Source: Cereibacter sphaeroides 2.4.1 (GTDB lineage Bacteria > Pseudomonadota > Alphaproteobacteria > Rhodobacterales > Rhodobacteraceae). Taken from it: 32,000 nucleotides of DNA. Below, in pieces: positions 1,158 through 18,827 of the stretch. The notes under the pieces were generated by a model. The model made no database searches and was not told where the DNA came from. It saw only the letters and a list, made by a program, of their open reading frames with translations. The stretch lies in contig NC_007488.2 of NCBI RefSeq assembly GCF_000012905.2, forward strand, positions 60,001-92,000, read 5' to 3'. Numbering within the stretch: position 1 is the first letter of the stretch; the number at the start of each line of letters is the position of its first letter. Both the position numbers and the translations under genes were made by a program.

Positions 1158-2156
1158 TCAGAAGCGCGCGCTGCGGCGCGAGCGGGCGAGCTTCGCGCGG
1201 GGTGGGGGGGCTTCGGCGGCGGTTTCATGGGCGAGGGTCGTGCAGACCCAGCGCCAGGTCTCGGCCAGCCCCTCCTCGAGGCCGATGCGCGGGGCCCAGT
1301 CGAAGGCTGCGCGCGCGCGGGAGATGTCGAGCACCACACGGGGCACGTCGTAGCCGCGGCCGGGCTGGCGGAGCGCGCGGACGGGCGGGCCGCCCGAAGC
1401 CTGGACGGTGCGGTCGATCCCGGCCACGATCTCGGCCACCGAGGTGCCGGTGCCGCTGCCCGCGTTGAAGAAGCCGCAGGTGTCCGAGCGCAGGGTCGCA
1501 ACGCAGAGCGCCGCCAGATCGCGGACATGGATGAAGTCGCGCGTCACCTGCCCGTCGCCCCAGATCTCGACCGGCTCGCCGCGCGCGGCGCGCCACAGGT
1601 GGGTGCCGATGATCCCCTGCACGCCGGTGTGGCCCTGTCGCGGCCCGTAGGGGTTCGAGGCGCGCAGCACCACGGGCGCCAGCCCGTAGAGCGCCTGCTC
1701 CATGCGGATGTAGCTCTCGATCGCGACCTTCACGATGCCGTAGGATCCGATGGGGCGCAGCGGATGCTCCTCGGGCACCGGATCGGCCTGCGGCACGCCA
1801 TAGACCGTGCCGCCGGACGAGAGGAACACGAGCCGCCGCTTGCCCGTCGCGCGCATCACGTCGAGAAGCCGCACCGTCGCCAGAAGATTGGCTTCGATGT
1901 CGAGCCCCGGGTTGAGGTTCGCGGTCGCGGGCACCGTCGCGCTCGCCAGATGGAGCACCGCCTCGACGTCGTGCAGCGCCCGGAACACCAGAGCCGGGTC
2001 GCTGTAGTCGCCCATGACATAATCGACGCCGGCAAGCGGCGGACGGAAGGCCTCGGGCCGTCGGCCGAAGACCCGCACCCGACAGCCCTCCTGCAACAGA
2101 AGGTCGACGACATGTGACCCGATAAAACCGCAGCCGCCTATTACCAGAACTTTCAT
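1158..2156 (-). CDS. NAD-dependent epimerase/dehydratase (UDP-sugar 4-epimerase-like, extended SDR)
   Basis: Track ORF 1158..2159(-). The first codon in the track is GTG, and the adjacent ATG at 2154-2156 gives MKVLVIGGCGFIGSHVVDLL (GxxGxxG Rossmann motif). It also has a YGxxK-type active-site region (SYGIVKVAIE) and an overall length of about 330 aa. Confidence 0.85.
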   Translation of the reverse strand: MKVLVIGGCGFIGSHVVDLLLQEGCRVRVFGRRPEAFRPPLAGVDYVMGDYSDPALVFRALHDVEAVLHLASATVPATANLNPGLDIEANLLATVRLLDVMRATGKRRLVFLSSGGTVYGVPQADPVPEEHPLRPIGSYGIVKVAIESYIRMEQALYGLAPVVLRASNPYGPRQGHTGVQGIIGTHLWRAARGEPVEIWGDGQVTRDFIHVRDLAALCVATLRSDTCGFFNAGSGTGTSVAEIVAGIDRTVQASGGPPVRALRQPGRGYDVPRVVLDISRARAAFDWAPRIGLEEGLAETWRWVCTTLAHETAAEAPPPRAKLARSRRSARF

Positions 2157-2337
2157 CACATGTTCCTCGCCAAGCCCTGCGCGGCTTAAACTACTTCCGA
2201 TTGTATTGAGTCAGATCCGATGTCAAGCCTCATTGTTCCTCAAGGCGAGAAAGACACAGCCTGAGGTAGAAATTGCTGTGGACGCGGCAGACGATGATCG
2301 CTATCAACCACCGGCATGGACCTGCCGTTGTGAGATC

Positions 2338-2826
2338 ATGCTGGCTGTGACGAGCAATGCCTTTCTGGGCGATTCGAATAAAGATTTCCTTGCCAACTGG
2401 CAGGAAACCTTCGTTCTCTTTGCCCTTCCGGGCAGCGGTCTCGGCCTGAAGGGGCTTCTCGAGCGCAACCGGAGCGCGATCCTCATCGAACATCTGCGGC
2501 CGCCCTCGGGCCCGTTCGCCCTGCTCGCGGACCTGCCGAAGTGGCTGGGCCACCATCTCCTCGATCCGACGCGGCCGCTCCTGTTCCTCGACCGGGCGTT
2601 CGAGACGGGCGAGCTGACCGAGGAAGAGCGCGCGGGCCGGGCCAGTCCCCGCGGGCTGCGGGCCGAGCTCGACGAGGCGGGGCGGCTGCGGCTGCTGCGG
2701 CTGGGCGGCATGATCGCCACGAGCCCGGTGCTGCCGCCCTTCCTGCGCATCCTCGCCCGGCAGGAGGTGGCGGTGGCCACGGCGCTCGACCTTCTGCGCA
2801 CGGCCTTCCCGGACAGCGGCACATGA
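2338..2826 (+). CDS. Hypothetical protein, translationally coupled to the downstream glycosyltransferase
   Basis: Track ORF 2206..2826(+), which begins at a TTG. The first in-frame ATG is at 2338, and an in-frame GTG at 2278 is an alternative start. The stop TGA at 2824-2826 overlaps the ATG at 2823-2825 of the next gene (ATGA). I recognised no family motif. Confidence 0.5.
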   Translation: MLAVTSNAFLGDSNKDFLANWQETFVLFALPGSGLGLKGLLERNRSAILIEHLRPPSGPFALLADLPKWLGHHLLDPTRPLLFLDRAFETGELTEEERAGRASPRGLRAELDEAGRLRLLRLGGMIATSPVLPPFLRILARQEVAVATALDLLRTAFPDSGT

Positions 2827-5288
2827 GCGACCTCGACGACCTCTGGCGCAGCCTCGCACCCGGGCAGGTGCTTGCCGAAAGGCCGGATTTCCGCCGCCCG
2901 CCGGTCGGAGAAGCCAGCGTCTACGACGAGCTGAAGGCGCAGATTTCCGGGCTCGACAAGGTGCTGGAGGACCTGACGACCCTGCCCGCCCTGTCGGAGG
3001 CCATTGCCCTCGGCGAACCCGACGCCTGCCATCTGGCCTGCGAACTGATCCGTCTGGGCGATCCGGTCGACCGGGCCGTGTCGGATTTCTCGCACGAGGC
3101 CTACCGGGCCTGGTATCCCGACATCGCGAAGGCGAAGATCGATCCCTTCCTCCACTATCTCGAACACGGCTGGAAGGAGGGGCGGCGCACGCTGGCGAGT
3201 CTGCGCGACAAGCACCACGCCGGGCGGCGGACCTACAACCCAAACGTGCAGACCTGCCTCATCGCCGTGCACGAGCTGTCGCGGACCGGCGCCCCTGTGG
3301 TGGGGCTCGATCTGGCGCGCGAGGCGGCCGAGACTTGCAATGTGGTTGTCGTCGCAGTGCGGGGCGGCGCCCTGCTGGAGGATTTTATCGATCATGTCTG
3401 CGATCTTGTGATTTCGGAAAATCCTTTTGGGGATATTCTTTTTCTCTCTCAAGAAAGTTTCACCAGGATAGATTTCGCGATCCTCAATTCGGTGGAGGCC
3501 GTTCCGCTCGTTCGCTATGCCGTCGCGCGGGACATTCCCTTCGCGACCTATATTCACGAATATACCGATTACACCTATCCGAATTACAAGGTGACATTGA
3601 CCTCGCTCTTTTCCGATCTGCTGATCTTTTCCTCGGATCACGTCCGGCAAAGCTGGACCGGTTGGCTACGCGACGTGGAGTGCGACATCGACCGCGACAC
3701 GCGGATCCTGCCGCAGCGCCCGGTCCGGATGGGAGGCTGCACCGAGGACCGCATCCGCGAGGCGCGGGAGCGGATCTCGGCGCTGATCGGGCGCGACTGC
3801 GCGCATGTGCGCCTCGTCTGCGGCGCGGGGCATCTCCAGTGGCGCAAGGGCCCCGACATCTTCGCCATGGCGGCCCAGATCTGCGCGGCGCGCGATCCCG
3901 ACACGCTGTTCCTCTGGATCGGCGACGGGCTCAATCCCGAGGACATGGAGTTCGGGGTATGGATGAGCTACCACCTGCGCCAGATCGGCGCGGGGCGGCC
4001 CGAGGGCAATCTCTTCCTGCTGCCGGCGGGGCCGGCCTATCCGGATGTGCTCGCGGCCGCGGATGCGATGTTCGTCTCGTCGCGGCTCGATCCGCTGCCG
4101 AACGTCGTGTTCGACGCGCTGGCGGCCGGGTGCCGGATCGTGCTCTTCGAGGGGGCGAGCGGCTTCGGCGATGCGGTCTACCGCCGATCGGGCCGGATCC
4201 GCACCGTCGAATATGGCAATCCCGCCGCCGCGGCCGAGGCGCTGCTCGACCTGCCGCGGAAGACCCCCGGGCCCGCGCGCGAGGCTGCGCCCGAGGCGGA
4301 CGGGCTCTTCGCCCGCATCCGCCGCGCGCTCCTCGACCGGCTCGCCACGCAGCGCTACTTCGTGCGCGGCGCGAGCGAGATCGACGCGCCGATGCTCTTC
4401 CACGAGCCGGAGCAGGCCGAGTTCCGCATCCTCGAGCGCGAGAAGATGATGCGCTACGGCCGCCGCCGCATGTGGCGCGATCTGGCCGAGGTCGAGGAGA
4501 GGCTGGCGGACGCCGACAACTGGGTCCACCGCAAGCTGCGGATCGCCCCCTACGGCACCGCAGAAGCCACGGAGCTGCCGCGCTTTTCGCTGCATGTCCA
4601 TGCCTTCTACACCGACGATCTGGCGCAGGACGTGCGCCGGCACGCGGCCTACCGCTGTGCCAGCCGGATCGTCGTCACCACCGACAGCGACCGGAAGGCG
4701 GACGAGATCCGCACGCTGATGGCGGCGGTGGGGCTTGCGCCCGAGGTGCTGGTCCGGCCCAACCGCGGGCGCGACATCCTGCCCTTCCTGCAGCTCTTCC
4801 TGCCCGGGGGCGCGGCGGGCGAGGACGAGATCTGGTGCCACCTGCATCAGAAGAAGTCGCTCGCCACCACGGACAGCGGCGACATCTGGCGCGCCTTCCT
4901 CCTGCGCATCCTCCTCGGGGATGAGGCGTCCCTGTCGGATGCGGCGACGAATCTGCGCAACCCAGGCGTGGGCCTCGTGGCGCCGTTCGATCCCTATTTC
5001 ATCCCGTGGGACGCCTCGCGCGCGCTGCTGCCGCGGGTCGCGCCGCGCCTGCCGGGCCCGCTGCCCGACAATCCGCTGCTCTTCCCGGTGGGCAACATGT
5101 TCTTTGTCCGCAGCGCGGTGGTGCGGGCGATGAACGACCTGTTCGGCGCGGGCTACCCCTGGCCCAACGAACCCATTCCCAACGACGGGACCGAGTTTCA
5201 TCTGATCGAGCGGCTCTGGCCCGCGCTGGCCGCGCAGTGCGGCCTGTCCTCGGTCTTCGTGCACAAGCTGGATCAGCAGAGGGTTTAG
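2823..5288 (+). CDS. Large polysaccharide-biosynthesis protein: GT4-like glycosyltransferase region fused to a C-terminal rhamnan synthesis F-like domain
   Basis: Track ORF 2541..5288(+), trimmed to the ATG at 2823 (MSDLDDLWRSLAPG...). The upstream extension is Arg/Ala/Pro-rich and overlaps the preceding ORF. The N-terminal part carries a 'YRAWYPDIAKAKIDPFLHYLEHGWKEGRR' motif common in glycan-locus proteins. The middle part looks GT4-like (CLIAVHELSRTGAPVV..., ...FVSSRLDPLPNVVFDALAAGCRIV). The C-terminal part (FSLHVHAFYTDDL...PNRGRDILPFLQLF...WCHLHQKKS...GNMFFVRS) matches my memory of the Rhamnan_synth_F family. Confidence 0.75.
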   Translation: MSDLDDLWRSLAPGQVLAERPDFRRPPVGEASVYDELKAQISGLDKVLEDLTTLPALSEAIALGEPDACHLACELIRLGDPVDRAVSDFSHEAYRAWYPDIAKAKIDPFLHYLEHGWKEGRRTLASLRDKHHAGRRTYNPNVQTCLIAVHELSRTGAPVVGLDLAREAAETCNVVVVAVRGGALLEDFIDHVCDLVISENPFGDILFLSQESFTRIDFAILNSVEAVPLVRYAVARDIPFATYIHEYTDYTYPNYKVTLTSLFSDLLIFSSDHVRQSWTGWLRDVECDIDRDTRILPQRPVRMGGCTEDRIREARERISALIGRDCAHVRLVCGAGHLQWRKGPDIFAMAAQICAARDPDTLFLWIGDGLNPEDMEFGVWMSYHLRQIGAGRPEGNLFLLPAGPAYPDVLAAADAMFVSSRLDPLPNVVFDALAAGCRIVLFEGASGFGDAVYRRSGRIRTVEYGNPAAAAEALLDLPRKTPGPAREAAPEADGLFARIRRALLDRLATQRYFVRGASEIDAPMLFHEPEQAEFRILEREKMMRYGRRRMWRDLAEVEERLADADNWVHRKLRIAPYGTAEATELPRFSLHVHAFYTDDLAQDVRRHAAYRCASRIVVTTDSDRKADEIRTLMAAVGLAPEVLVRPNRGRDILPFLQLFLPGGAAGEDEIWCHLHQKKSLATTDSGDIWRAFLLRILLGDEASLSDAATNLRNPGVGLVAPFDPYFIPWDASRALLPRVAPRLPGPLPDNPLLFPVGNMFFVRSAVVRAMNDLFGAGYPWPNEPIPNDGTEFHLIERLWPALAAQCGLSSVFVHKLDQQRV

Positions 5289-5293
5289 GGCGC

Positions 5294-6295
5294 ATGGAAG
5301 TCATTCTGCACATCGGCATGGGCAAGACGGGGACCTCCTCGATCCAGACGGCGCTGGAGCAGAACGCGGACGCGCTGCGCAGGCAGGGCGTCGACTATCT
5401 CGGCATGTGGTTCGACATGCTCGATCCCGCCTTCCACGGCCTCTCCGGGCAGCCCGCCTTCTTCCGCTCGGAGCCGCCGGAGATGCAGGCCCATGCCCGC
5501 CGCTTCGCGGACGTGCTGGCCGAGCGGGAGCGCGCCGCGGGCTGCAGCCGCTTCATCCTGTCGAACGAGGGGATCTACGGGCAGGTGCTCACCATGCTGC
5601 CCTTCGTCGAGGAACTGCGGCGCCATGTGCGGCTGCGGCTTCTGGCCTATGTGCGCGACCCGCACGAATGGCTGCCCTCGGCCTACAGCCAATGGTCGAT
5701 CTTCCACAAGAATTACGAAGGCCCCGTGCGACCCTTCGCCGAGATGGCGCGCCAGCAGGTGAAGGTCTATTCCGGCTTCCAGGTCTGGGGCGAGGCGGTG
5801 CCCGACCTGCTGACGGTGCGGCCCTACCTGAGGCAGAAGAACGTGGTCGAGGATGTCGCGGAGGTGCTGGGCGTCGCGCTCGCCCCGCCGGCGAAGCGGC
5901 GGCAGGCGCGCGTCACGGCCGACGAGGCGGCGCTGCGCATCTTCTACAACACCCGCCTGCCCGGCAACACGCTGCCCGGGATCTTCGACGGGGCGTTCGA
6001 GGGCCTGAACCTGCGCGCCGCTCCGGTGCTCGCGGATGTCGCGGCCCGGATGCTCGACTATCGCGGGACCGACCGGATCGTCGACGAGGCCCGCCCGCTC
6101 TTCGACTATCTGCGCACCCGCTTCGGGATCGACTTCCCGTCCGAACATGCCGAGATCGAGCCGCCTCCGGATCCCGAGGCGCTGCGGCGCCGGCTGACCG
6201 AGCATCTGCTGCAGATCGTCATGCATCAGGCCGACCGCATCACGGCCCTCGAGAAAGCCGTGGCGGCGCTTCAGGCCGCGCCCGGCGAGCGTTGA
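5294..6295 (+). CDS. Sulfotransferase-like P-loop protein
   Basis: Track ORF 5006..6295(+), trimmed to the ATG at 5294 (MEVILHIGMGKTGTSSIQ...). 'GMGKTGTS' resembles the 5'-phosphosulfate-binding loop of PAPS-dependent sulfotransferases. 'YVRDPHEWLPSAYSQ' resembles the 3'-phosphate-binding RxPxxxxxS motif. The gene starts 5 nt after the previous stop. Confidence 0.55.
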   Translation: MEVILHIGMGKTGTSSIQTALEQNADALRRQGVDYLGMWFDMLDPAFHGLSGQPAFFRSEPPEMQAHARRFADVLAERERAAGCSRFILSNEGIYGQVLTMLPFVEELRRHVRLRLLAYVRDPHEWLPSAYSQWSIFHKNYEGPVRPFAEMARQQVKVYSGFQVWGEAVPDLLTVRPYLRQKNVVEDVAEVLGVALAPPAKRRQARVTADEAALRIFYNTRLPGNTLPGIFDGAFEGLNLRAAPVLADVAARMLDYRGTDRIVDEARPLFDYLRTRFGIDFPSEHAEIEPPPDPEALRRRLTEHLLQIVMHQADRITALEKAVAALQAAPGER

Positions 6296-6565
6296 GCGGG
6301 GGGCGCGATGGAGGCTCCGGCAGAGGCAGGGACGGGCAGGAGGCGGAGGCGCCGGTCGCGGCACGCCGTCGCTTCGCGCGCCGCGGCCCGCGCGCGCGGC
6401 AACCGGCGGCCCGCCTGCCGCGGGAATGCGAGCAGGGCCGGGGCGCCTCCGCGTCCCGAGGATCGCGTCGCACCTCTCCCTCCATGCACCGCCCTCCACA
6501 GGACGGGCGCCCGGCCTGCCGCCGCCGCGCGCCCGGACCGTCTCTGACAGGGGTTATCGATCGTC

Positions 6566-8032
6566 ATGTCACTCGTCCAAGCCTCCCCACCGCGGATCGC
6601 CCTCATCGTCCTCGGGATGCACCGCTCCGGCACCTCCGCCCTCGCGGGCGTCCTCGCGCAGATGGGCTGCGACCTGCCGCAGGATCTGATGCCCTCCACC
6701 GCGTTCAATCCCCGTGGCCATTTCGAGTCGCTTCAGGTCTATCACCTGAACGATGCGATCCTCGCCTCGGGGGGGTCCGCGTGGGATGACTGGGCGCCCT
6801 TCAACCCCGAGTGGTATCGCTCGCCGCGGCTGGGCGAGTTCCGGCAGCGCGCGGCCGAGGTGATGGCGCAGGAATTCGGCCGGTCGAGCCTGATCGTGCT
6901 GAAGGACCCGCGCATCTGCCGCCTGCTGCCCTTCTGGAAGGAGGTGCTGGCCGAGGCGGGCTTCCGGCCGCTCTTCGTCTGCACCCATCGCGCCCCGGAC
7001 GAGGTGGCGGCCTCGCTCTCGCGGCGCGAGGGCTGGCCTCCGGGGTGGGGGCAGCTTCTCTGGCTGCGCCATGTGCTCGAGGCCGAGGCCGAGACCCGGC
7101 AGGAGCCGCGCCTCTTCGTGTCCTACGAGGCGCTCCTGTCGGACTGGCGCGCCACGGTGGCGCGGATCGGCGAGGGGCTCGGGCTGCGCTTCCCCCGCAC
7201 GGCGGATGCGGCCGCCCCGGCCATCCGCGATTTCCTCGCCGACGAGCTGCGCCACTTCCGCTCTGCCAGCGCGCGCGAGGGCGTGCTGCCGCCGGACTGG
7301 ATCCGCCGCCCGCAGGAGATCTTCGGCCGCTGGGCCGCTACGGGCGAGACGGCCGAGGACTGGGCCGAGCTCGACGGGATCCGGGCGGAGGTCGACCGCG
7401 CCACGCCGATGCTGGGGATGGTCGCGCGCGACGCGGCCAGGGCGAGCGCGCAGGGCCGGGACGGAGAGGAGGCCGAAAAGGCGGAGCAGGCGATGCGCGA
7501 GGAGGAACTCGCGCTCCTGCGGCGCGCGCAGGCCGACACCGAGGCCCGCCTGCGCCATGCCACGGTGCATCTGGAGGCCATGACCCGCCAGCTCTCGGCC
7601 GAGATCGAGGCGACGGCCCCGGCCGAGCTTCAGGCGCGGGAGCGTCTGCCGGCGGTGGAGGCGGCCCGCGCCGCGCTCGAGCGCGAGGTGGACGATCTGC
7701 GCCAGAACCTGCGGCACCGCGCGGCTCATGTGGTCGAGCTCGAACGCCACGCGGGCGCGCTGGCCGAGCGCGCGGCGGCGCTCGAGCAGTGCGTGGCGGC
7801 GCTCGAGCAGCGCGTGGCCGAGCTCGAGCAGTGCGTGGCAGAGCTTGAGGGGCAGGGCGAGGCGCTCGAGCGCCAGCGGAAGGACGCCACCGGGAAACTG
7901 GCCGCGGCCCGTCTTCAGATCGCAGAGATGGAGGCGCGCCACGCCGCGATCCTTTCCAGCACCTCCTGGAAGGTGACGCGGCCGATCCGGTCGGCGGTGG
8001 AGAGGCTGCACCGCGCGAAGCAGCCGTCGTGA
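6566..8032 (+). CDS. Sulfotransferase family protein with a long C-terminal coiled-coil tail
   Basis: Track ORF 6566..8032(+). The N-terminus IALIVLGMHRSGTSALAGVL is a P-loop/5'-PSB-like motif, and 'LIVLKDPRICRLLPFW' is a 3'-PB-like motif. The C-terminal ~200 aa is rich in Ala, Glu, Leu and Arg with heptad periodicity (ALEQCVAALEQRVAELEQCVAELEGQGEALE). It ends with the 'SSTSWKVTRPIR' motif often seen at the end of glycan-locus coiled-coil proteins. Confidence 0.65.
   Translation: MSLVQASPPRIALIVLGMHRSGTSALAGVLAQMGCDLPQDLMPSTAFNPRGHFESLQVYHLNDAILASGGSAWDDWAPFNPEWYRSPRLGEFRQRAAEVMAQEFGRSSLIVLKDPRICRLLPFWKEVLAEAGFRPLFVCTHRAPDEVAASLSRREGWPPGWGQLLWLRHVLEAEAETRQEPRLFVSYEALLSDWRATVARIGEGLGLRFPRTADAAAPAIRDFLADELRHFRSASAREGVLPPDWIRRPQEIFGRWAATGETAEDWAELDGIRAEVDRATPMLGMVARDAARASAQGRDGEEAEKAEQAMREEELALLRRAQADTEARLRHATVHLEAMTRQLSAEIEATAPAELQARERLPAVEAARAALEREVDDLRQNLRHRAAHVVELERHAGALAERAAALEQCVAALEQRVAELEQCVAELEGQGEALERQRKDATGKLAAARLQIAEMEARHAAILSSTSWKVTRPIRSAVERLHRAKQPS
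7778..7861 (+). repeat. In-frame 21-bp (7-codon) tandem repeat: three near-identical copies plus one degenerate copy
   Basis: Copies read directly from the sequence: 7778-7798 GCGCTCGAGCAGTGCGTGGCG, 7799-7819 GCGCTCGAGCAGCGCGTGGCC, 7820-7840 GAGCTCGAGCAGTGCGTGGCA and 7841-7861 GAGCTTGAGGGGCAGGGCGAG. They encode the ALEQCVA / ALEQRVA / ELEQCVA / ELEGQGE heptads. Confidence 0.85.
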
Positions 8033-8071
8033 GTCCGCGTCCGCGGCGCCCGCTCCGGGGACGGGCCTCCG

Positions 8072-8089
8072 CTCCGGCCGCGGCCGGAG
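8072..8089. terminator. 18-bp GC-rich palindrome (CTCCGGCCGCGGCCGGAG); candidate terminator stem for the sulfotransferase gene
   Basis: Perfect palindrome located 40 nt after the stop at 8032. There is no U-tract, so intrinsic-terminator function is uncertain. Confidence 0.3.
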
Positions 8090-8159
8090 GAGCCTGACCC
8101 GGCACCCCAAGGGCTGGGGCGACAGGGTGGAAGCGGCCCGCTGCCATACAACCTGCGGC

Positions 8160-8200
8160 CTGTGCGCCGCTGCGGCGGATCCCGCGGCAGCGGCGCACAG
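8160..8200. repeat. Perfect 14-bp inverted repeat (CTGTGCGCCGCTGC ... GCAGCGGCGCACAG) with a 13-nt spacer that can itself pair (GCGG/CCGC)
   Basis: The arms are at 8160-8173 and 8187-8200 and are exact reverse complements. It lies between the glycan locus and kaiC, about 25 nt upstream of a promoter-like TTGAGA/TATACT pair. Its function is unknown; it could be a terminator/insulator or an operator. Confidence 0.7.
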
Positions 8201-8225
8201 GCCTGAAAATAGTGCTCAAGGACAG

Positions 8226-8252
8226 TTGAGAATCCGCAGCACGGGATATACT
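8226..8252 (+). promoter_or_regulatory. Candidate sigma70-type promoter for the kai operon
   Basis: TTGAGA (8226-8231), a 15-nt spacer and TATACT (8247-8252), in a locally AT-richer stretch about 60 nt upstream of the kaiC ATG. The spacer is shorter than the optimum. This is a consensus match by eye only. Confidence 0.25.
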
Positions 8253-8311
8253 TCTCGCAACCCGGCGGCCTCGAACGGCCGCGGGTCTTGTTAAGCCGAG
8301 GTGATGGACCG

Positions 8312-10024
8312 ATGACGTCTCAGTTGGGGATCGGCAAGTCGCCGACCGGCATCCAGGGGTTCGACGAGCTGACACTCGGCGGACTGCCCACCGGACGCCC
8401 GAGCCTCGTCTGCGGGTCCGCGGGCTGCGGCAAGACCCTGTTCGCCTCCACCTTCCTCATCAACGGCGTGCGCGACCACGGCGAGCCGGGCGTCTTCGTG
8501 ACCTTCGAGGAGCGCCCCGAGGACATCGTGAACAACGTGGCCTCGCTGGGCTTCGAGCTCGACAAGCTGATCGAGGAAGAGAAGATCGCGATCGAACATA
8601 TCGCGGTCGATCCCTCCGAAGTGGCCGAGATCGGCGACTACGACCTCGAGGGGCTGTTCCTGCGACTGGAGCTGGCCATCGACACGGTGGGCGCCAAGCG
8701 CGTGGTTCTCGACACGATCGAAAGCCTGTTCTCGGCCTTCTCGAACCCCGCGATCCTGCGGGCCGAGATCCGGCGGCTGTTCGACTGGCTGAAGGAGCGC
8801 GGGCTCACCACCGTCATCACCGCCGAGCGGGGCGACGGCGCGCTGACGCGGCAGGGGCTCGAGGAATATGTCTCGGACTGCGTGATCCTGCTCGACCACC
8901 GGGTCGAGAACCAGATCTCGACCCGCCGCCTGCGCATCGTGAAATACCGCGGCACGGCGCACGGGACCAACGAATATCCGTTCCTGATCGACACCGACGG
9001 CTTCTCGGTGCTGCCCGTCAGCGCGCTGGGGCTGCTGCATCAGGTCCATGAGGAGCGCATCGCCTCGGGCGTGCCCGATCTCGATGCGATGATGGCGGGC
9101 GGCGGCTTCTTCCGCGGCTCCTCGATCCTCGTCTCGGGCGTGGCCGGCGCGGGCAAATCCTCGCTCGCCGCCCATTTCGCCGCCGCCGCCTGCGCGCGGG
9201 GCGAGCGGGCCATGTATTTCTCCTTCGAGGAGGCGGCCGATCAGGCGGTGCGCAACATGCGCTCGCTGGGCCTCGATCTCGGGCGCTGGCGCGACGCGGG
9301 CCTGCTGCGCTTCATGGCGACGCGGCCCACCTTCTACAGCCTCGAGATGCATCTGGCGGTGATCCTGCGCGAGGTGATGCGCTTCGAGCCCTCCGTCGTG
9401 GTGCTCGACCCGATCTCGGCCTTCACCGAGAGCGGCGACCGGCTCGAGGTGCAGTCGATGCTGCTGCGGATCGTCGATTTCCTCAAGAACCGCGGCATCA
9501 CCGGCATCTTCACCCATCTCGCCCACAGCCAGAACGAGGCCACGACCGATGCGGGCCTGTCGTCGCTGATGGATGGCTGGGTGCTGATGCTGAACCGCGA
9601 GGTGAATGGCGAGTTCAACCGCGAGCTCTATCTGCTCAAGGCCCGCGGCATGGCCCATTCGAACCAGGTGCGCGAGTTCCTGATGAGCGATCGCGGCATC
9701 TCGCTCCTGCCGCCGCATCTGGGCGAGGGCGGGGCGCTCACCGGCACCGCCCGCAAGGCCGAGGAGGCGCGGCTGCGCCGGGCCGAGATCGAGCGGCAGA
9801 CCGAGCTCGGCCGGCTCCAGCAGCAGATCGAGCAGCGCCGCCGCCGGGCGCGCGCGCAGATCGAGGCGCTCGAGGCGGAGCTGCAGGCCGAGGAGATCGC
9901 GCTCAAGGCGCTGGTGGAGAGCGAGAGCGCGCACGAGCGACAACGGCTGGCCGATGCCGATACCCTGGCCCGAAGCCGCGGAAACGAGCGTTTCGCGGAC
10001 CTCTTGATGAATAAGGGAGAGTGA
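8312..10024 (+). CDS. kaiC: Circadian clock protein KaiC (double RecA-like/P-loop domain autokinase) with an extended C-terminal coiled-coil tail
   Basis: Track ORF 8288..10024(+), which begins at a TTG. I trimmed it to the ATG at 8312, preceded by GAGGTG at 8297-8302. CI domain: [18 protein letters not shown], Walker A GSAGCGKT, catalytic pair [10 protein letters not shown] and Walker [14 protein letters not shown] domain: [13 protein letters not shown], Walker [19 protein letters not shown] and [10 protein letters not shown]. The segment [42 protein letters not shown] aligns with the S. elongatus HISTITDTIILLQ...KMRGSWHDKAIREF region, which puts Ser-Ser where Ser431/Thr432 sit. Confidence 0.95.
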
Positions 10025-10026
10025 GC

Positions 10027-10296
10027 ATGCGTCGCCTCGTCCTCTATGTCGCGGGTCAGACCCCCAAATCTCTGGCCGCCATCAGCAACCTCCGCCGCAT
10101 CTGCGAGGAAAACCTGCCCGGCCAGTATGAGGTCGAGGTCATCGACCTGAAGCAGAATCCGCGGCTCGCCAAGGAACACAGCATCGTGGCGATCCCCACC
10201 CTCGTGCGCGAGCTGCCGGTGCCGATCCGCAAGATCATCGGCGACCTGTCCGACAAGGAGCAGGTGCTGGTGAACCTCAAGATGGACATGGAGTAG
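10027..10296 (+). CDS. kaiB: Circadian clock protein KaiB
   Basis: Track ORF 10021..10296(+). The GTG at 10021 overlaps the kaiC stop (GTGA). The in-frame ATG at 10027 follows AAGGGAGAG (10013-10021) at good spacing, so I prefer it. The protein [81 protein letters not shown] is colinear with cyanobacterial KaiB (LKLYVAGNTPNS...[22 protein letters not shown]...PVRRIIGDLSDREKVL). Confidence 0.95.
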
Positions 10297-10301
10297 GGCC
10301 C

Positions 10302-11738
10302 GTGACCCCGGCCGAGATCGACGAGCTCCGCCGACGGCTCCACGAGGCCGAAGAGACGCTGAAGGCCATCCGTCAGGGCGATGTCGATGCCCTTGTGGTG
10401 GGCGCGTCCGACGACACCGACGTCTATGTGATCGGCGGCGATCCCGACATCTGCCGCAGCTTCCTCGACATGATGGAGATCGGGGCGGCCGCGCTCGACA
10501 ACACCGGGCGCGTCCTCTACGCGAATGCCGTGCTGGCCGATCTTGTGGGCCGGCCGCTGCCCGAACTCGAGGGGATGCGGCTGTCCGAGCTGACCGGCGA
10601 TCCGGCGCTCGAGAGCGAGATCCTCGAGGGCAGGCTCCGCCGCCGCCGGATCCCGCTCGGCGTGGCCGGCGCAGAGCGGCAGGTGATGCTCTCCTGCGGG
10701 AAGCTGCGGCTCGGCACCGTGTCGGGCCATGCCGTCACCTTCACCGATTTCACCGAGCAGCTCGCGGCCGAACGGTCGCGCCAGAACGAGAAGGCGGCGC
10801 TGGCCATCATCGCCTGCGCGAACGAGCCCGTCTTCGTCTGCGACACTTTGGGCCTCATCACGCATCTGAGCGGCGCCGCGGCGGTGCTCGCGGGCAGCGG
10901 GGCCATCGGCCGGCCCTTGTCGGAGGTCATGGATCTGAGCGTGGGCGACGGCACCGGGCTCCTCACGCTGGGCGAGATCGTGGCGCAGGCCACCGAGGGC
11001 ATTCCGGTGCAGGGGATCGAGGCGGTCGCGGCCGAGGGCACGCCCTTCTATCTCATCAGCGCGGCGCCGCTTCAGGTGCCGGGCGAGGCCGTCAGCGGCT
11101 GCGTCATCACCATGGTGGACCTGTCGCAGCGCAAGGCGGCCGAGCGCCACCAGCAGCTTCTGCTGCGCGAGCTCGATCACCGGGTCAAGAACACGCTCGC
11201 GCTGGTCATGTCGATCAGCCGCCGCACGATGCACAGCGAGGAGACGCTGGAGGGCTATCAGAAGGCCTTCACCGCCCGCATTCAGGCGCTGGCCGCGACG
11301 CACAACCTGCTTGCCGACAAGTCCTGGAGCGACATCTCGATCCGCGACGTGCTGGTGCGCGAACTGGCGCCCTACAACGAGGGCTTCTCGCAGCGCATCC
11401 TCGTCGAGGTGCCCGATGTCGAGATCGAGCCGCGCTCGGCCATCGCGCTCGGCCTCGTGATCCACGAGCTCGCGACCAACGCCACAAAATACGGCTCGCT
11501 CTCGACGCCTGAGGGGCAGGTCAGGGTCCGTGGCCTTCCGGGCGCGGACGAGCCTGCGGACGTGGTCTGCCTCGAATGGCTCGAGCGCGGCGGCCCGCCG
11601 GTGTCCGAGCCCACCCGGTCGGGCTTCGGCCAGACCGTGATCCGCCACGCCTTCGCCTATGCCGAGGGCGGCGGCGCCGAGGTCAGCTTCGAGCCCGACG
11701 GGGTGCGCTGCCGGGTTTCGGTGCCGACCGGCGTCTGA
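10302..11738 (+). CDS. PAS-domain sensor histidine kinase of the HWE/HisKA_2 type, co-transcribed with kaiCB
   Basis: Track ORF 10302..11738(+). The GTG start is only 5 nt after the kaiB stop (TAG, 10294-10296). The N-terminal helix is EIDELRRRLHEAEETLKAIRQGDVDALVV, followed by two PAS-like segments (..LDNTGRVLYANAVLADLVGRP.. and ..VFVCDTLGLITHLSGAAAVLAG..). The H-box is LLRELDHRVKNTLALV and the N-box is VIHELATNATKYGS. 'CLEWLERGGPPV' is the W-x-E signature of HWE kinases, and GFGQTVI is the G2 box. There is no receiver domain. Confidence 0.85.
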   Translation: MTPAEIDELRRRLHEAEETLKAIRQGDVDALVVGASDDTDVYVIGGDPDICRSFLDMMEIGAAALDNTGRVLYANAVLADLVGRPLPELEGMRLSELTGDPALESEILEGRLRRRRIPLGVAGAERQVMLSCGKLRLGTVSGHAVTFTDFTEQLAAERSRQNEKAALAIIACANEPVFVCDTLGLITHLSGAAAVLAGSGAIGRPLSEVMDLSVGDGTGLLTLGEIVAQATEGIPVQGIEAVAAEGTPFYLISAAPLQVPGEAVSGCVITMVDLSQRKAAERHQQLLLRELDHRVKNTLALVMSISRRTMHSEETLEGYQKAFTARIQALAATHNLLADKSWSDISIRDVLVRELAPYNEGFSQRILVEVPDVEIEPRSAIALGLVIHELATNATKYGSLSTPEGQVRVRGLPGADEPADVVCLEWLERGGPPVSEPTRSGFGQTVIRHAFAYAEGGGAEVSFEPDGVRCRVSVPTGV

Positions 11739-12059: not shown

Positions 12060-12509
12060 TCAGCGCACCACGAGAACCGGCACCGGACTGTGGGCCAGCA
12101 CTTCGGCCGTCTGGCTGCCGAGGAGGAGCCGGCCCAGCCCGCGCCGCCCGTGCGAGGACATGCAGATCAGGCTGCAGTCGCGGCTGCGGGCGGCTTCGAC
12201 GATGGCTTCGGCCGGCAGCGAGCCCGGCACATGCAGCACCTCGGCCGAGACGCCCATCCGGTCGGCGGCCTCGCGGGCGTCCTTGAGGATGCCCTCGGCC
12301 CGCTCCTTCTGCCGCGCCTCATATTCGGTATCGAGCTCCACCGGGGCGACCCAGGCCTCGCCGGCCGAGGCGGCATAGAGCGGAAAGGCCTCGGTCACCG
12401 TGATGATCGTCACCTTCGCGCCGAGCGCCCGCGCGAGGGTGAGGCCGTGGTCGAGCCCCTTGCCGGCGGTTTCGGACCCGTCGGTGGCAATGAGAATATG
12501 TTGGTACAT
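12060..12509 (-). CDS. Universal stress protein (UspA family)
   Basis: Track ORF 12060..12584(-), trimmed to the ATG at 12507-12509, preceded by AGGAG. MYQHILIATDGSETAGKGLDHGLTLARALGAKVTIITV... and the C-terminal ...MSSHGRRGLGRLLLGSQTAEVLAHSPVPVLVVR carry the G-x2-G-x9-G(S/T) ATP-binding signature. Confidence 0.85.
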   Translation of the reverse strand: MYQHILIATDGSETAGKGLDHGLTLARALGAKVTIITVTEAFPLYAASAGEAWVAPVELDTEYEARQKERAEGILKDAREAADRMGVSAEVLHVPGSLPAEAIVEAARSRDCSLICMSSHGRRGLGRLLLGSQTAEVLAHSPVPVLVVR

Positions 12510-16416: not shown

Positions 16417-16713
16417 TCACTTCCGTCTGTCCTTCGGGCGCCGCCGCTCTTCCCGCTCGATCTCGACCACGGCGAGGCTGCCCGGATCGAGCATCACCTC
16501 GACCTCGAAGCCCTCGCGGTCCCAGCCGTCGATCTCGTAGCAGCCGTCGTCGACATGGAGCCGCCGGATCGTCCAGCCTTCGCGGGCCGCCAGCGCCTCG
16601 ACGGCCGCGCGGGGCTGCCAGTCGGCCATGGCCACGCTGCACTCGTCATCCGCCGCGGCGGGCGCCGCCAGCACCGCGGCGACCAGCGCCATCGTCCGCA
16701 TCCCTGGCCTCAT
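16417..16713 (-). CDS. Secreted PepSY-like domain protein
   Basis: Track ORF 16417..16713(-), with GGAGG upstream of the ATG. It has a signal-peptide-like N-terminus (MRTMALVAAVLAAPAAA) and a small domain (...AAVEALAAREGWTIRRLHVDDGCYEIDGWDREGFEVEVMLDPGSLAVV) that resembles PepSY-type modules found next to two-component systems. Confidence 0.6.
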   Translation of the reverse strand: MRPGMRTMALVAAVLAAPAAADDECSVAMADWQPRAAVEALAAREGWTIRRLHVDDGCYEIDGWDREGFEVEVMLDPGSLAVVEIEREERRRPKDRRK

Positions 16714-16848
16714 GCCTCTGCCTCCACCGGATCGCCTCCTGTCTGCCGGGCGCGCCTTACGGTCACCTGACAGGTGGCGCGAAAGGCTGTCAGCCTGGTG
16801 TCAGGCGAAGTGCGGAGAATGAGCGGAAACCGTCTGGTGGTGAGTGAC

Positions 16849-17508
16849 ATGCGTATCCTGCTGATCGAGGACGACGAGGTGCTGGGCAATGCGGTGGCCG
16901 ACCATGTGGCCGAGGCCGGTCACACGGTCGATCGGGCGAAATGCCTCTCCGAGGCCGACGACTCCCTCGCCGTCGCGACCTACGATCTGGCGCTGCTCGA
17001 CCTGATGCTGCCCGACGGGCTGGGCATCCCCTTCCTGCGCAAGCGCCGGGCGCGGGGGGACAGCACGCCGGTCATCATCCTGACCGCGCTCGACCAGATC
17101 ACCGAGCGGATCGACGGGCTGAATGCGGGGGCGGACGACTATCTCGTGAAGCCCTTCGATCTGGCCGAACTTTCCGCGCGGATCGGATCGGTGGCCCGGC
17201 GCTACGGCGGCAATCCCAACCCGGTCGTCCGGCTCGGCGCCTTCGAGGTCGATCTCGCCGCCCGCACCATCCGCCGCGAGGGCCGCCCGGTGCCGCTCAC
17301 GGCGCGCGAATGGGTGCTGCTCGAGGCCTTCCTTGCGCGGCCCAATCAAGTGCTGTCCAAGGCGCAGCTCGAGGAGCGGCTCTGGTCCTTCGAGGCCGAG
17401 ATCGAGAGCAACGCCATCGAGGTCTATGTGAGCCGCCTCCGGCGCAAGCTCGACCACTCGGTGATCGAGACGGTGCGGGGCCTGGGCTACAGGCTCGGCT
17501 GCCCGTGA
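16849..17508 (+). CDS. OmpR/PhoB-family response regulator
   Basis: Track ORF 16774..17508(+), trimmed to the ATG at 16849. The receiver domain is MRILLIEDDEVLG...LALLDLMLPDGLG...DDYLVKPFDLAEL. The winged-helix output domain is LTAREWVLLEAF...IEVYVSRLRRKL...VRGLGYRL. Confidence 0.9.
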   Translation: MRILLIEDDEVLGNAVADHVAEAGHTVDRAKCLSEADDSLAVATYDLALLDLMLPDGLGIPFLRKRRARGDSTPVIILTALDQITERIDGLNAGADDYLVKPFDLAELSARIGSVARRYGGNPNPVVRLGAFEVDLAARTIRREGRPVPLTAREWVLLEAFLARPNQVLSKAQLEERLWSFEAEIESNAIEVYVSRLRRKLDHSVIETVRGLGYRLGCP

Positions 17509-18827
17509 GGGTGCGCTCGCTGCAGGCCCGCCTCGCGCTGATGCTGGGCGCGGGCGTCACGTTGCTCTGGCTCGCCAGCGCCAGCTTCACCGCGCATCTG
17601 CTGCATGGCGAGCTGGACGAAGTGTTCGATTCCGCGCTGGAAGAGACGGCGCAGCGCCTGTTGCCGCTTGCGGTGATGGAGATCCTCGGCCGCGAGGAGC
17701 CGGGCGTCAGCCAGCGCATCGCCGCGCTGCGCGCCCACGAGGAATTCTATACCTACCTCGTGCGCGATCCGGCGGGCGCGGTCCTGATCGCCTCGCACCG
17801 GGCCGAGCCTGCGGACTTCCCGCCCTGCACGGCCCCGGGCTTCACGCAGACGGCGACGCACAGGCTCTATTGCGACGCGGCGCTGAAGGGGACGTTCACC
17901 ATCGCCGTGGCCGAACCGCTGGCCCACCGGGCCCGGATCGCGCAGGAGCTGGTCATGGCGCTGGGACTGCCGCTCGTGGTGCTGATCCCGCTGGCGCTGG
18001 CGGGGATCGTGGCGGTGGTGCGCTGGAGCTTCCGCCCCGTGCGCGCGCTCCGCGATGCGCTGACCCGGCGCGGCGCGGGCGATCTCGCGCCGGTGGGGGG
18101 CGCCGACCTTCCGGCCGAGATCGCGCCGGTGGCGGCGGCGGCCGACCAGCTCCTCGAGCGGCTGCGCCGCGCCTTCGAGGCCGAACGCTCCTTCGCCGCC
18201 CATGCCGCGCACGAGCTGCGCACGCCGGTGGCGGGCGCCACCGCGCAGGCGCAGCGCATCCGGATCGAGACGACGGATCCCAAGGCCGCGATGCGCGCGG
18301 GCGAGATCGAGGCCACCCTGAAGCGCCTTTCGCGGCTGGCCGACAAGCTGATGCAGCTGGCCCGCGCCGAGGGCGGCCGCCCGCTGGCCGACACGCCCGC
18401 CGACCTCCGGCCGATCCTGTCGCTGGTGGCGAGCGACTTCACCCGCGCGGGCGCCGGCGCGCGGTTCGCGCTGACGCTGCCCGGGACGCCGGTGCCGAGC
18501 CGGATCGACCCCGACGCCTTCGCCATCCTCTGCCGCAACCTGATCGAGAATGCGCTGCGCCATGGCGGGCCCGACGAGCCCGTCGAGGTCGCCCTGACCG
18601 AGGACGGCCTGCTCAGGGTGCAGAACGGCGGCCCGCCCGTGCCGGCGGACGTGCTGCCCCGCCTGACCCGGCGGTTCGAGCGGGCGGCCGGCGCGGGCGA
18701 GGGCTCGGGCCTCGGCCTCTCGATCGTGCGCACCATCGTCGAGCGGGTGGGCGCCACGCTCGATCTCGCCTCGCCGCGCCCGGGCCGGAGCGACGGCTTC
18801 GCCGCGACCGTGCGCCTTCCCGCCTGA
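17505..18827 (+). CDS. Membrane sensor histidine kinase (HisKA + HATPase_c)
   Basis: This is the in-frame tail of track ORF 16941..18827(+). The GTG at 17505 overlaps the response regulator stop (GTGA), and the GTG at 17511 is an alternative start. It has two hydrophobic segments (LALMLGAGVTLLWLASASF and ALGLPLVVLIPLALAGIVAVV), an H-box FAAHAAHELRTPV, an N-box NLIENALRHG and a G-box GSGLGLSIV. Confidence 0.85.
   Translation: MRVRSLQARLALMLGAGVTLLWLASASFTAHLLHGELDEVFDSALEETAQRLLPLAVMEILGREEPGVSQRIAALRAHEEFYTYLVRDPAGAVLIASHRAEPADFPPCTAPGFTQTATHRLYCDAALKGTFTIAVAEPLAHRARIAQELVMALGLPLVVLIPLALAGIVAVVRWSFRPVRALRDALTRRGAGDLAPVGGADLPAEIAPVAAAADQLLERLRRAFEAERSFAAHAAHELRTPVAGATAQAQRIRIETTDPKAAMRAGEIEATLKRLSRLADKLMQLARAEGGRPLADTPADLRPILSLVASDFTRAGAGARFALTLPGTPVPSRIDPDAFAILCRNLIENALRHGGPDEPVEVALTEDGLLRVQNGGPPVPADVLPRLTRRFERAAGAGEGSGLGLSIVRTIVERVGATLDLASPRPGRSDGFAATVRLPA

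Follow-up and report, generated by a model that had tools for sequence, protein, structure and literature searches.

A Kai-linked PAS-PAS-HWE histidine kinase encoded behind kaiB in Cereibacter sphaeroides as a candidate output kinase of the KaiBC timer

To our knowledge, the KaiBC timer of Cereibacter sphaeroides (KaiBC_RS) is the biochemically best-understood timer outside the cyanobacteria, and we know of no route that leads from it to physiology. Does the histidine kinase gene that follows kaiB provide one? The kinase is the obvious first candidate for such a link. The analysis was carried out on 32,000 nucleotides (nt) of C. sphaeroides 2.4.1 DNA (contig NC_007488.2, positions 60,001 to 92,000; hereafter the window) and concerns the kaiC-kaiB-kinase cluster within it. 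An original prediction, made from the DNA letters, had named the kinase as a link into or out of the Kai timer. The structure and gene order described here agree with that candidate role, but the idea is not new. On balance, the kinase is probably an output kinase that docks on the Kai proteins and signals to an unlinked regulator.

The three genes lie head to tail on one strand, in a window with a G+C content of 69.9%. The layout of the cluster is as follows.

8033..8311, + strand: region 5' of kaiC, presumed promoter region of the operon (putative function)
8312..10024, + strand: kaiC (KaiC_RS, KaiC2-type), ATG to TGA, with a C-terminal coiled-coil extension of ~50 amino acids (aa); RefSeq WP_011331300.1
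10027..10296, + strand: kaiB (KaiB_RS), ATG to TAG; Pfam KaiB 91.4 bits; RefSeq WP_002725098.1
10290..10301, + strand: coupling junction, with GGAG at 10290-10293, the kaiB stop TAG at 10294-10296 and the spacer GGCCC at 10297-10301 (5 nt)
10302..11738, + strand: Kai-linked PAS-PAS-HWE histidine kinase, 478 aa, GTG start, TGA at 11736-11738; RefSeq WP_011331301.1
11746..12012, - strand: 88-aa hypothetical open reading frame (ORF), convergent with the kinase gene, 3' limit of the operon; RefSeq WP_009564096.1

The Kai proteins encoded here are those of the reconstituted timer. When the translation from 8309-10024 was used as query, which begins one codon ahead of ATG 8312, KaiC agreed with PDB 8DBA/8FWI at 100% identity over residues 6-571; it matched the KaiC profile NF006799 at 757.6 bits. 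KaiB agrees with PDB 8FWJ chain M at 100% identity, and its RefSeq accession is the one used in PMC10076222. KaiC_RS and KaiB_RS of Rhodobacter (Cereibacter) sphaeroides have been reconstituted as a KaiA-independent hourglass timer, in which KaiB_RS binds KaiC_RS and drives the hourglass (Nature 2023, PMC10076222). In RefSeq, the gene products are entered as KaiC, as KaiB family protein and as 'HWE histidine kinase domain-containing protein'.

kaiC and kaiB are separated by 2 nt. As in the original prediction, the kinase GTG stands 5 nt past the kaiB stop, and a Shine-Dalgarno-like GGAG is located within the final kaiB codons, 8 nt ahead of this start. The kinase is, as judged from this junction, translationally coupled to kaiB. 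GTG 10302 is the earliest ATG, GTG or TTG past the in-frame stop ending at 10130, so no longer reading of the kinase is possible; homologues start at the equivalent residue, and the RefSeq coding sequence is identical to the called ORF. The three genes are presumably co-transcribed. From the start of kaiC to the stop of the kinase gene, the scans returned no site resembling a promoter or a terminator and no Rfam match, a result that counts neither for nor against an internal promoter, and the promoter scan detected no sigma-70-like site in 8033-8311 upstream of kaiC.

The kinase itself is divided into the following parts, for which AF2 denotes the AlphaFold2 model.

10302..10436, + strand: N-terminal helix (residues 3-24) and strand segment G-[DE]-V-D-A-L-V-V (residues 26-33), the most conserved stretch of the Kai-linked module (24 and 90 sequences)
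10443..10748, + strand: PAS1 (residues 48-149); Pfam PAS_4 over 60-153; AF2 secondary structure
10752..10817, + strand: inter-PAS linker helix (residues 151-172); AF2
10830..11120, + strand: PAS2 (residues 177-273); weak Pfam PAS_9 over 175-276; AF2; C180 and H188 invariant
11124..11318, + strand: DHp / HWE_HK domain (residues 275-339); Pfam HWE_HK over 290-369; codon of the phospho-acceptor H293 at 11178-11180
11340..11726, + strand: catalytic ATP-binding domain (residues 347-475); N-box H388-E389...N393; W426-x-E428

Assignment to the HWE histidine kinases (Pfam PF07536 / HisKA_2 clan) follows from the profile score together with the H-box, N-box and W-x-E motifs. Pfam HWE_HK was matched at 86.2 bits against a cut-off of 22.8, and HisKA_2 at 32.1 bits against 22.3. 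The motifs quoted in the original prediction were located: ELDHRVKN at residue 290 (H293), HELATNATKYG at 388 and WLERGGP at 426. ELDHRVKN, H293, H388/E389/N393 and W426/E428 are invariant across 24 homologues. The AF2 model, built with the same 24 homologues, has a mean pLDDT (predicted local distance difference test) of 80.8 and shows both PAS folds complete, followed by a pair of DHp helices and the catalytic domain, in line with the two PAS-like domains predicted before. Residues 28-42 are of low confidence in this model, the conserved strand having a pLDDT of about 40. Such low confidence is typical of segments that become ordered only in a complex or dimer, and the conserved strand may be one of them. 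The predicted lack of a membrane span and of a receiver was also borne out. The maximum 19-residue Kyte-Doolittle hydropathy is 1.55, located in a PAS2 strand, so the kinase has no transmembrane segment, and the Pfam search returned no receiver, GAF or KaiB-like domain. The NCRF motif of LOV domains is absent from PAS1, and no cofactor motif could be assigned.

Is the place of the kinase gene behind kaiB a matter of chance? Full-length relatives number in the hundreds, with 98-100% coverage, 47-54% identity, lengths of 480-510 aa and the same domain set; among their sources are Devosia, Aquibium, Rhodospirillum rubrum, Nitrobacter, Aureimonas and Acetobacteraceae. A reference-genome scan was carried out with the full-length kinase alignment, its search patterns being drawn from the generic HWE core, and 5 of the 80 listed loci were true orthologues. 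All five, from Bradyrhizobium, Rhizobium, Sphingomonas, a Hyphomicrobiales metagenome-assembled genome (MAG) and an isolate labelled Rhizobiales, have kaiC-kaiB directly 5'. The other 75 listed loci, generic HWE kinases, served as negative control, and kaiB was found upstream of none of them (0/75). The orthologues of R. rubrum, Devosia, Nitrobacter and Prosthecomicrobium showed the order kaiC-kaiB-kinase in 4/4 cases, with a 4-nt kaiB/kinase overlap in three. The full-length orthologues inspected in isolate genomes and MAGs are thus located directly behind kaiB in 9/9 cases. A gene order confined to close relatives had been set beforehand as a refuting test; the order was found across Rhodobacterales, Rhodospirillales, Hyphomicrobiales and Sphingomonadales.

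Metagenome contigs were scanned with the sensor-region alignment only, with patterns lying within the first 65 residues, and the best 80 of 400 relatives were inspected. kaiB is immediately upstream in 79 of these 80 loci, and kaiC as well wherever the contig is long enough; apparent kaiB-sensor gaps of 340-620 nt hold a second kaiB paralogue. The distance from kaiB stop to sensor start is -4 nt in 35/88 loci and between -23 and +14 nt in 70/88. Clustering of the 90 module sequences gave 77 groups at 90% identity and 26 at 50%, so the kaiB adjacency is not one clone counted repeatedly. Among 72,556 annotated plasmids, 14 matched the first 100 kinase residues (E <= 1e-3). Nine of the 14 are from Cereibacter and near-identical over the whole cluster (annotation inspected for two), and four carry the annotated order kaiC-kaiB(-kaiB)-sensor, in Falsirhodobacter, Sinorhizobium, Rhizobium and Pararhizobium. 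The fourteenth, from Novosphingobium, is a partial match over the helix (residues 6-31) and the only exception seen. The position of a kai-operon PAS sensor, on the same strand and directly downstream of kaiB, is thus the one seen for the kinase here, for all nine orthologues, for all but one of the inspected metagenome loci and for each of the plasmid loci inspected that matched the module in full.

In 29/88 Kai-linked loci (L126-L164 series), two or three tandem kaiB paralogues are located between kaiC and the sensor gene. The sensor always follows the last tandem kaiB (for example, L127 4507-4812 and L169 3308-3981), and the Pararhizobium plasmid is annotated in this way.

What is kept in these sensors is the N-terminus, while the transmitter varies. 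Among 10 scanned Kai-linked relatives, two have HWE_HK, two have HisKA+HATPase_c without a receiver (404 and 552 aa), four are HisKA hybrid kinases with one or two receiver domains, one has HATPase_c and a receiver without a HisKA match, and one is a GAF + SpoIIE/PP2C phosphatase. The N-terminus is the constant part, its best-conserved stretch across 90 sequences being ELRRRLxEAEETLRAIRxGEVDALVV, followed by VFTLxG, SYRxFMExMxxGAAALD and LYAN; together these motifs cover the helix, a strand and the start of PAS1. A hidden Markov model of residues 1-47 matched 89/89 Kai-linked loci and 0/75 generic HWE loci. Specificity of the module for Kai loci is a lower-confidence claim, because the inspected metagenome relatives are the best 80 of 400. 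An adaptor that reads the Kai complex and hands the signal to different outputs would be expected to show just this combination of a constant sensor and interchangeable effectors behind kaiB, and the pattern favours such a role.

It is suggested, tentatively, that the first ~100-150 residues (helix ELRRRLxEAEETLRAIR, strand GEVDALVV and PAS1) may be a dedicated Kai-docking adaptor, most likely on KaiB, which evolution would have joined to four or more effector types (HWE kinase, HisKA kinase, hybrid kinase and GAF-PP2C phosphatase). By way of strand 26-33, the adaptor might extend the beta-sheet of fold-switched KaiB (fsKaiB) at its edge. Docking of KaiA and CikA on KaiB by beta-sheet edge addition was reportedly described by Tseng et al. 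in 2017.

How could such a docking kinase serve as output? After synthesis by translational coupling to kaiB, its N-terminal helix, the G-E/D-V-D-A-L-V-V strand and PAS1 would dock on KaiB or on the KaiB-KaiC complex, which forms as the ATP/ADP ratio falls and KaiC_RS is dephosphorylating. Docking would be relayed via PAS2 and the DHp helices and would switch either autophosphorylation at H293 or phosphatase activity. The phosphoryl group would then pass to a regulator encoded elsewhere, by HWE precedent a single-domain receiver or a PhyR-type protein, and the kinase would serve the timer mainly as an output. The scheme presumes Kai binding, the direction in which the signal runs and the partner regulator. 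Experimental precedents exist. The N-terminal PAS domains of KidA bind fsKaiB (Kim et al. 2022, PMC9478674), and Pseudomonas KaiC binds an adjoining kinase via its N-terminal PAS domain (Terrettaz et al., bioRxiv 10.1101/2022.01.26.477890).

Several observations weigh against the kinase being a Kai-docking output. The Nature 2023 reconstitution required KaiB and KaiC only, and that paper does not mention the kinase (PMC10076222). The KidA and Pseudomonas precedents would lend support by analogy. As the inspected metagenome loci were the best 80 of 400, weaker relatives may have no tie to Kai. Ligand binding by the two PAS domains is conceivable and would suit an input role, and the PP2C variant could act on phospho-Ser/Thr of KaiC and so be a regulator rather than an output. 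The sole exception among the 80 metagenome loci, L125 (1401-3011), encodes a full module-PAS-PAS-HWE kinase with no kaiB upstream; its contig is 3.2 kb long, and the upstream 1.4 kb holds only a divergent gene, L,D-transpeptidase-like by eye. On plasmid pSA1 of Novosphingobium resinovorum (L170 4004-4669), the helix (73% identity over residues 6-31) runs straight into an HWE core, without PAS domains and with no kai genes within 4 kb, so the helix alone is not exclusive to Kai loci. A conserved downstream partner was rejected as well, since a receiver domain was found in 6/52 genes directly downstream of Kai-linked sensors, the remainder being heterogeneous and mutually unrelated.

Input and output are not equally well served by the comparative data, which lean to output. 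In the input proposal, attributed to Min et al. 2005, the PAS domains would sense redox, oxygen or light and the kinase would entrain or reset the KaiBC timer. Its basis is the presence of two PAS domains, with C180 and H188 of PAS2 invariant and able in principle to bind a ligand or sense redox, together with the proposal of the kinase as redox transducer to KaiBC, as relayed in PMC5520375 (Schmelling et al. 2017), PMC6627678 and PMC10931921, and the oxygen-dependent period of the R. sphaeroides rhythm given in PMC5520375 and PMC10931921. CikA of cyanobacteria, moreover, unites input and output roles. A kinase acting on the timer is, however, less easily explained because KaiB and KaiC offer no receiver or known His-Asp acceptor, which leaves a histidine kinase no obvious chemical route. 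A varied transmitter joined to a fixed N-terminal module is also hard to square with one specific enzymatic action on the timer, and PAS1 and PAS2 show neither a LOV motif nor an assignable cofactor motif. In vitro, besides, the ATP/ADP ratio entrains KaiBC_RS directly with the kinase absent (PMC10076222, as given in PMC11372060). An input sensor is therefore considered unlikely, and an output adaptor is favoured because the module is constant, the transmitter varies and the kaiB adjacency is kept.

The same module could instead bind and stabilise fsKaiB and so tune the timer, with kinase output secondary or simultaneous. KidA behaves in this way, as its PAS-ABC binds fsKaiB and shortens the period with its enzymatic domains dispensable (PMC9478674), and the strict place of the sensor gene behind kaiB, even behind a second kaiB paralogue, points to KaiB over KaiC as the partner. 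Strict conservation of the catalytic residues, by which enzymatic output would be under selection, speaks against this role, which is regarded as slightly less probable than an input sensor. Least probable, and by a wide distance, is an ordinary orphan HWE sensor kinase that merely rides on the kaiCB transcript as a functionally independent neighbour. Orphan HWE kinases are abundant in Alphaproteobacteria, no partner regulator lies nearby, and L125 and L170 are relatives without kai genes. Yet the kaiB adjacency is kept over four orders and 26 clusters at 50% identity, the kaiB stop and the sensor start overlapping in most cases, and the generic HWE kinase loci listed in the reference-genome scan lack kaiB altogether.

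Where, then, would the regulator of a Kai-docking output kinase be found? The original prediction had noted that the operon lacks a partner, and this was confirmed. No response regulator is encoded in the kinase operon, the next gene being the convergent 88-aa ORF, and the sole response regulator of the window has a kinase of its own.

16774-17508: OmpR-type response regulator, the only response regulator in 32 kb
17508-18827: 2CSK_N/HAMP/HisKA kinase, overlapping the OmpR-type regulator gene

The OmpR-type regulator was rejected as partner of the Kai-linked kinase because of this overlap. With a PepSY gene on the minus strand ahead of it, the pair makes up a self-contained two-component system (16417-18827) unrelated to the kai cluster. 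Five of the six downstream receivers of Kai-linked sensors were identified. Three follow short HisKA-type sensors, one is a weak single-domain receiver behind an HWE-type orthologue (L005), and the fifth is encoded past an HWE-type sensor gene but on the opposite strand (L131). Absence of a partner from the operon is, on these neighbourhoods, the rule for the kinase subfamily, and the partner, where present, is a single-domain receiver. Such partners fit known HWE/HisKA_2 kinases (PMC5964349). R. sphaeroides has a PhyR homologue, RSP_1274, whose role is atypical (PMC5830050). No sigma factor, NepR or PhyR gene was found within the window, and a PhyR route is a guess by family-level analogy.

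How much of this was already known? Ma et al. 2016 (PMC4794148) described 'a kaiC-B-PAS/HK operon (as in R. palustris)' in Rhodobacter and drew kaiC, kaiB and PAS/HK behind one predicted promoter. The arrangement of PAS sensors in kai operons was already described or interpreted by De Luca 2011 (PMC3164672), and Kim et al. 2022 (PMC9478674) pointed out that PAS genes are often co-operonic with kaiBC outside the cyanobacteria and suggested a conserved PAS-Kai association. For Bradyrhizobium ORS278, a 'circadian clock operon' (BRADO1478-1481) is listed that comprises kaiC and kaiB together with genes for a PAS/PAC kinase and a CheY-like regulator (PMC3899966). The locus, the operon and the input/output hypothesis are already known, the arrangement having been described since 2005 and the gene being annotated in RefSeq. 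No paper testing this kinase was found in the open-access literature. The compact N-terminal module that tracks kaiB across effector types may be the new part; no description of it was found in open-access text.

The locus is the kaiC-kaiB-PAS/HK operon of purple bacteria (R. sphaeroides, R. palustris, Bradyrhizobium ORS278), except that the CheY-like regulator that follows the kinase in ORS278 is absent here. In domain plan the kinase resembles LOV-HK of Brucella abortus, which has the same three PAS-PAS-HWE domains. The best structural match of the kinase model is full-length LOV-PAS-HK 6PH4 (Foldseek E 1.8e-28), and the kinase core is about 33% identical to the Brucella LOV-HK core 5EPV. 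Unlike the Brucella protein, the kinase has an extra conserved N-terminal helix-strand segment, a linkage to kaiB and a non-LOV PAS1. Membership in LOV-HK (NCBIfam NF052306 BluLightHisKinLov) was rejected at 139.7 bits against a cut-off of 450, the match covering the core 273-475 only and NCRF being absent; PhyK (NCBIfam NF051872) was rejected at 19.2 bits against 750.

With the cyanobacterial clock output histidine kinases SasA, which docks on KaiC, and CikA, which docks on KaiB-KaiC, the likeness would be one of function, namely docking control. The architecture differs, as had been predicted. A SasA-like N-terminus was rejected (no Pfam KaiB match; BLASTP of residues 1-153 against KaiB gave E = 0.11 over 22 residues), and so was CikA membership (no GAF, HisKA (PF00512) or Response_reg match in the kinase). 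The kinase is of HWE rather than HisKA type, and no RpaA-type partner is known. KidA of Synechococcus elongatus is, like the kinase, a soluble multi-PAS protein, but it bears the cyclic di-GMP enzyme domains GGDEF/EAL (PMC9478674), and kidA lies outside the kai operon whereas the kinase gene lies inside. The genes of PP_3835-type kinases of Pseudomonas stand beside kaiC, and the N-terminal PAS suffices for KaiC binding (bioRxiv 10.1101/2022.01.26.477890). Single-domain regulators have been proposed as partners of these KaiC-associated kinases, which are of other kinase types and belong to systems without kaiB; the link described here is specifically to clusters that contain kaiB.

The whole window (1-32000; L165) is plasmid DNA. 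Alignment of the 3.45-kb cluster (8288-11738) gave 100% identity with the ~114-kb non-mobilizable plasmid of C. sphaeroides 2.4.1; KD131 carries the cluster at 99.1% identity on a plasmid of 157 kb. The kaiC-kaiB-sensor cassettes are plasmid-borne also in Falsirhodobacter (beside a replication initiator gene), Sinorhizobium, Rhizobium and Pararhizobium, and plasmid-borne cassettes in several genera suggest horizontal movement. In plasmid pB of C. sphaeroides DSM 158 (L171) the kinase is unannotated. Relative to the window, single G/C bases are inserted in pB at 10305, 11011, 11086 and 11239, and its kaiC lacks the 2 nt at 9923-9924. A true loss of the kinase from this strain was rejected, as the record annotates 46 of about 100 genes, and an assembly error is most likely. 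A relation to defence systems was likewise rejected, as the PADLOC 'mad8' match of KaiC covers residues 267-325 and is too weak.

Upstream of kaiC, 1158-8032 holds a polysaccharide-modification cluster with genes for an NAD-dependent epimerase, a large glycosyltransferase/RgpF (rhamnan synthesis) protein and two sulfotransferase-like proteins, the second of which bears a long coiled-coil tail. A GC-rich hairpin (GCGGCC...GGCCGC) with a T-rich run is located at 8265-8282, 30 nt ahead of the kaiC ATG. It could be the terminator of the sulfotransferase genes or an element of the 5' untranslated region of the kai operon; an Rfam scan gave no match for it. On the 3' side, the stop codons of the kinase gene and the 88-aa ORF are 7 nt apart with no terminator-like site between them, and the ORF product had no significant Pfam match. 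A universal stress protein gene (12060-12509, - strand) lies next to this ORF on the same strand, and this 3' neighbourhood is not kept in other genera. In two related metagenome contigs (L093, 3676-4080 on the - strand, and L094), a bacterial globin-like gene is convergent on the Kai-linked kinase gene.

The comparative result narrows the focus to residues 1-160 of the kinase and to KaiB as the likely partner. If Kai binding and Kai-dependent switching of the kinase are true, this would be the first output pathway of a KaiA-less timer, with a portable docking module. Such a module, if the adaptor role holds, would be the KaiA-less equivalent of the KaiB-like domain of SasA or the pseudo-receiver of CikA, and a general output connector of proteobacterial KaiBC hourglass timers.

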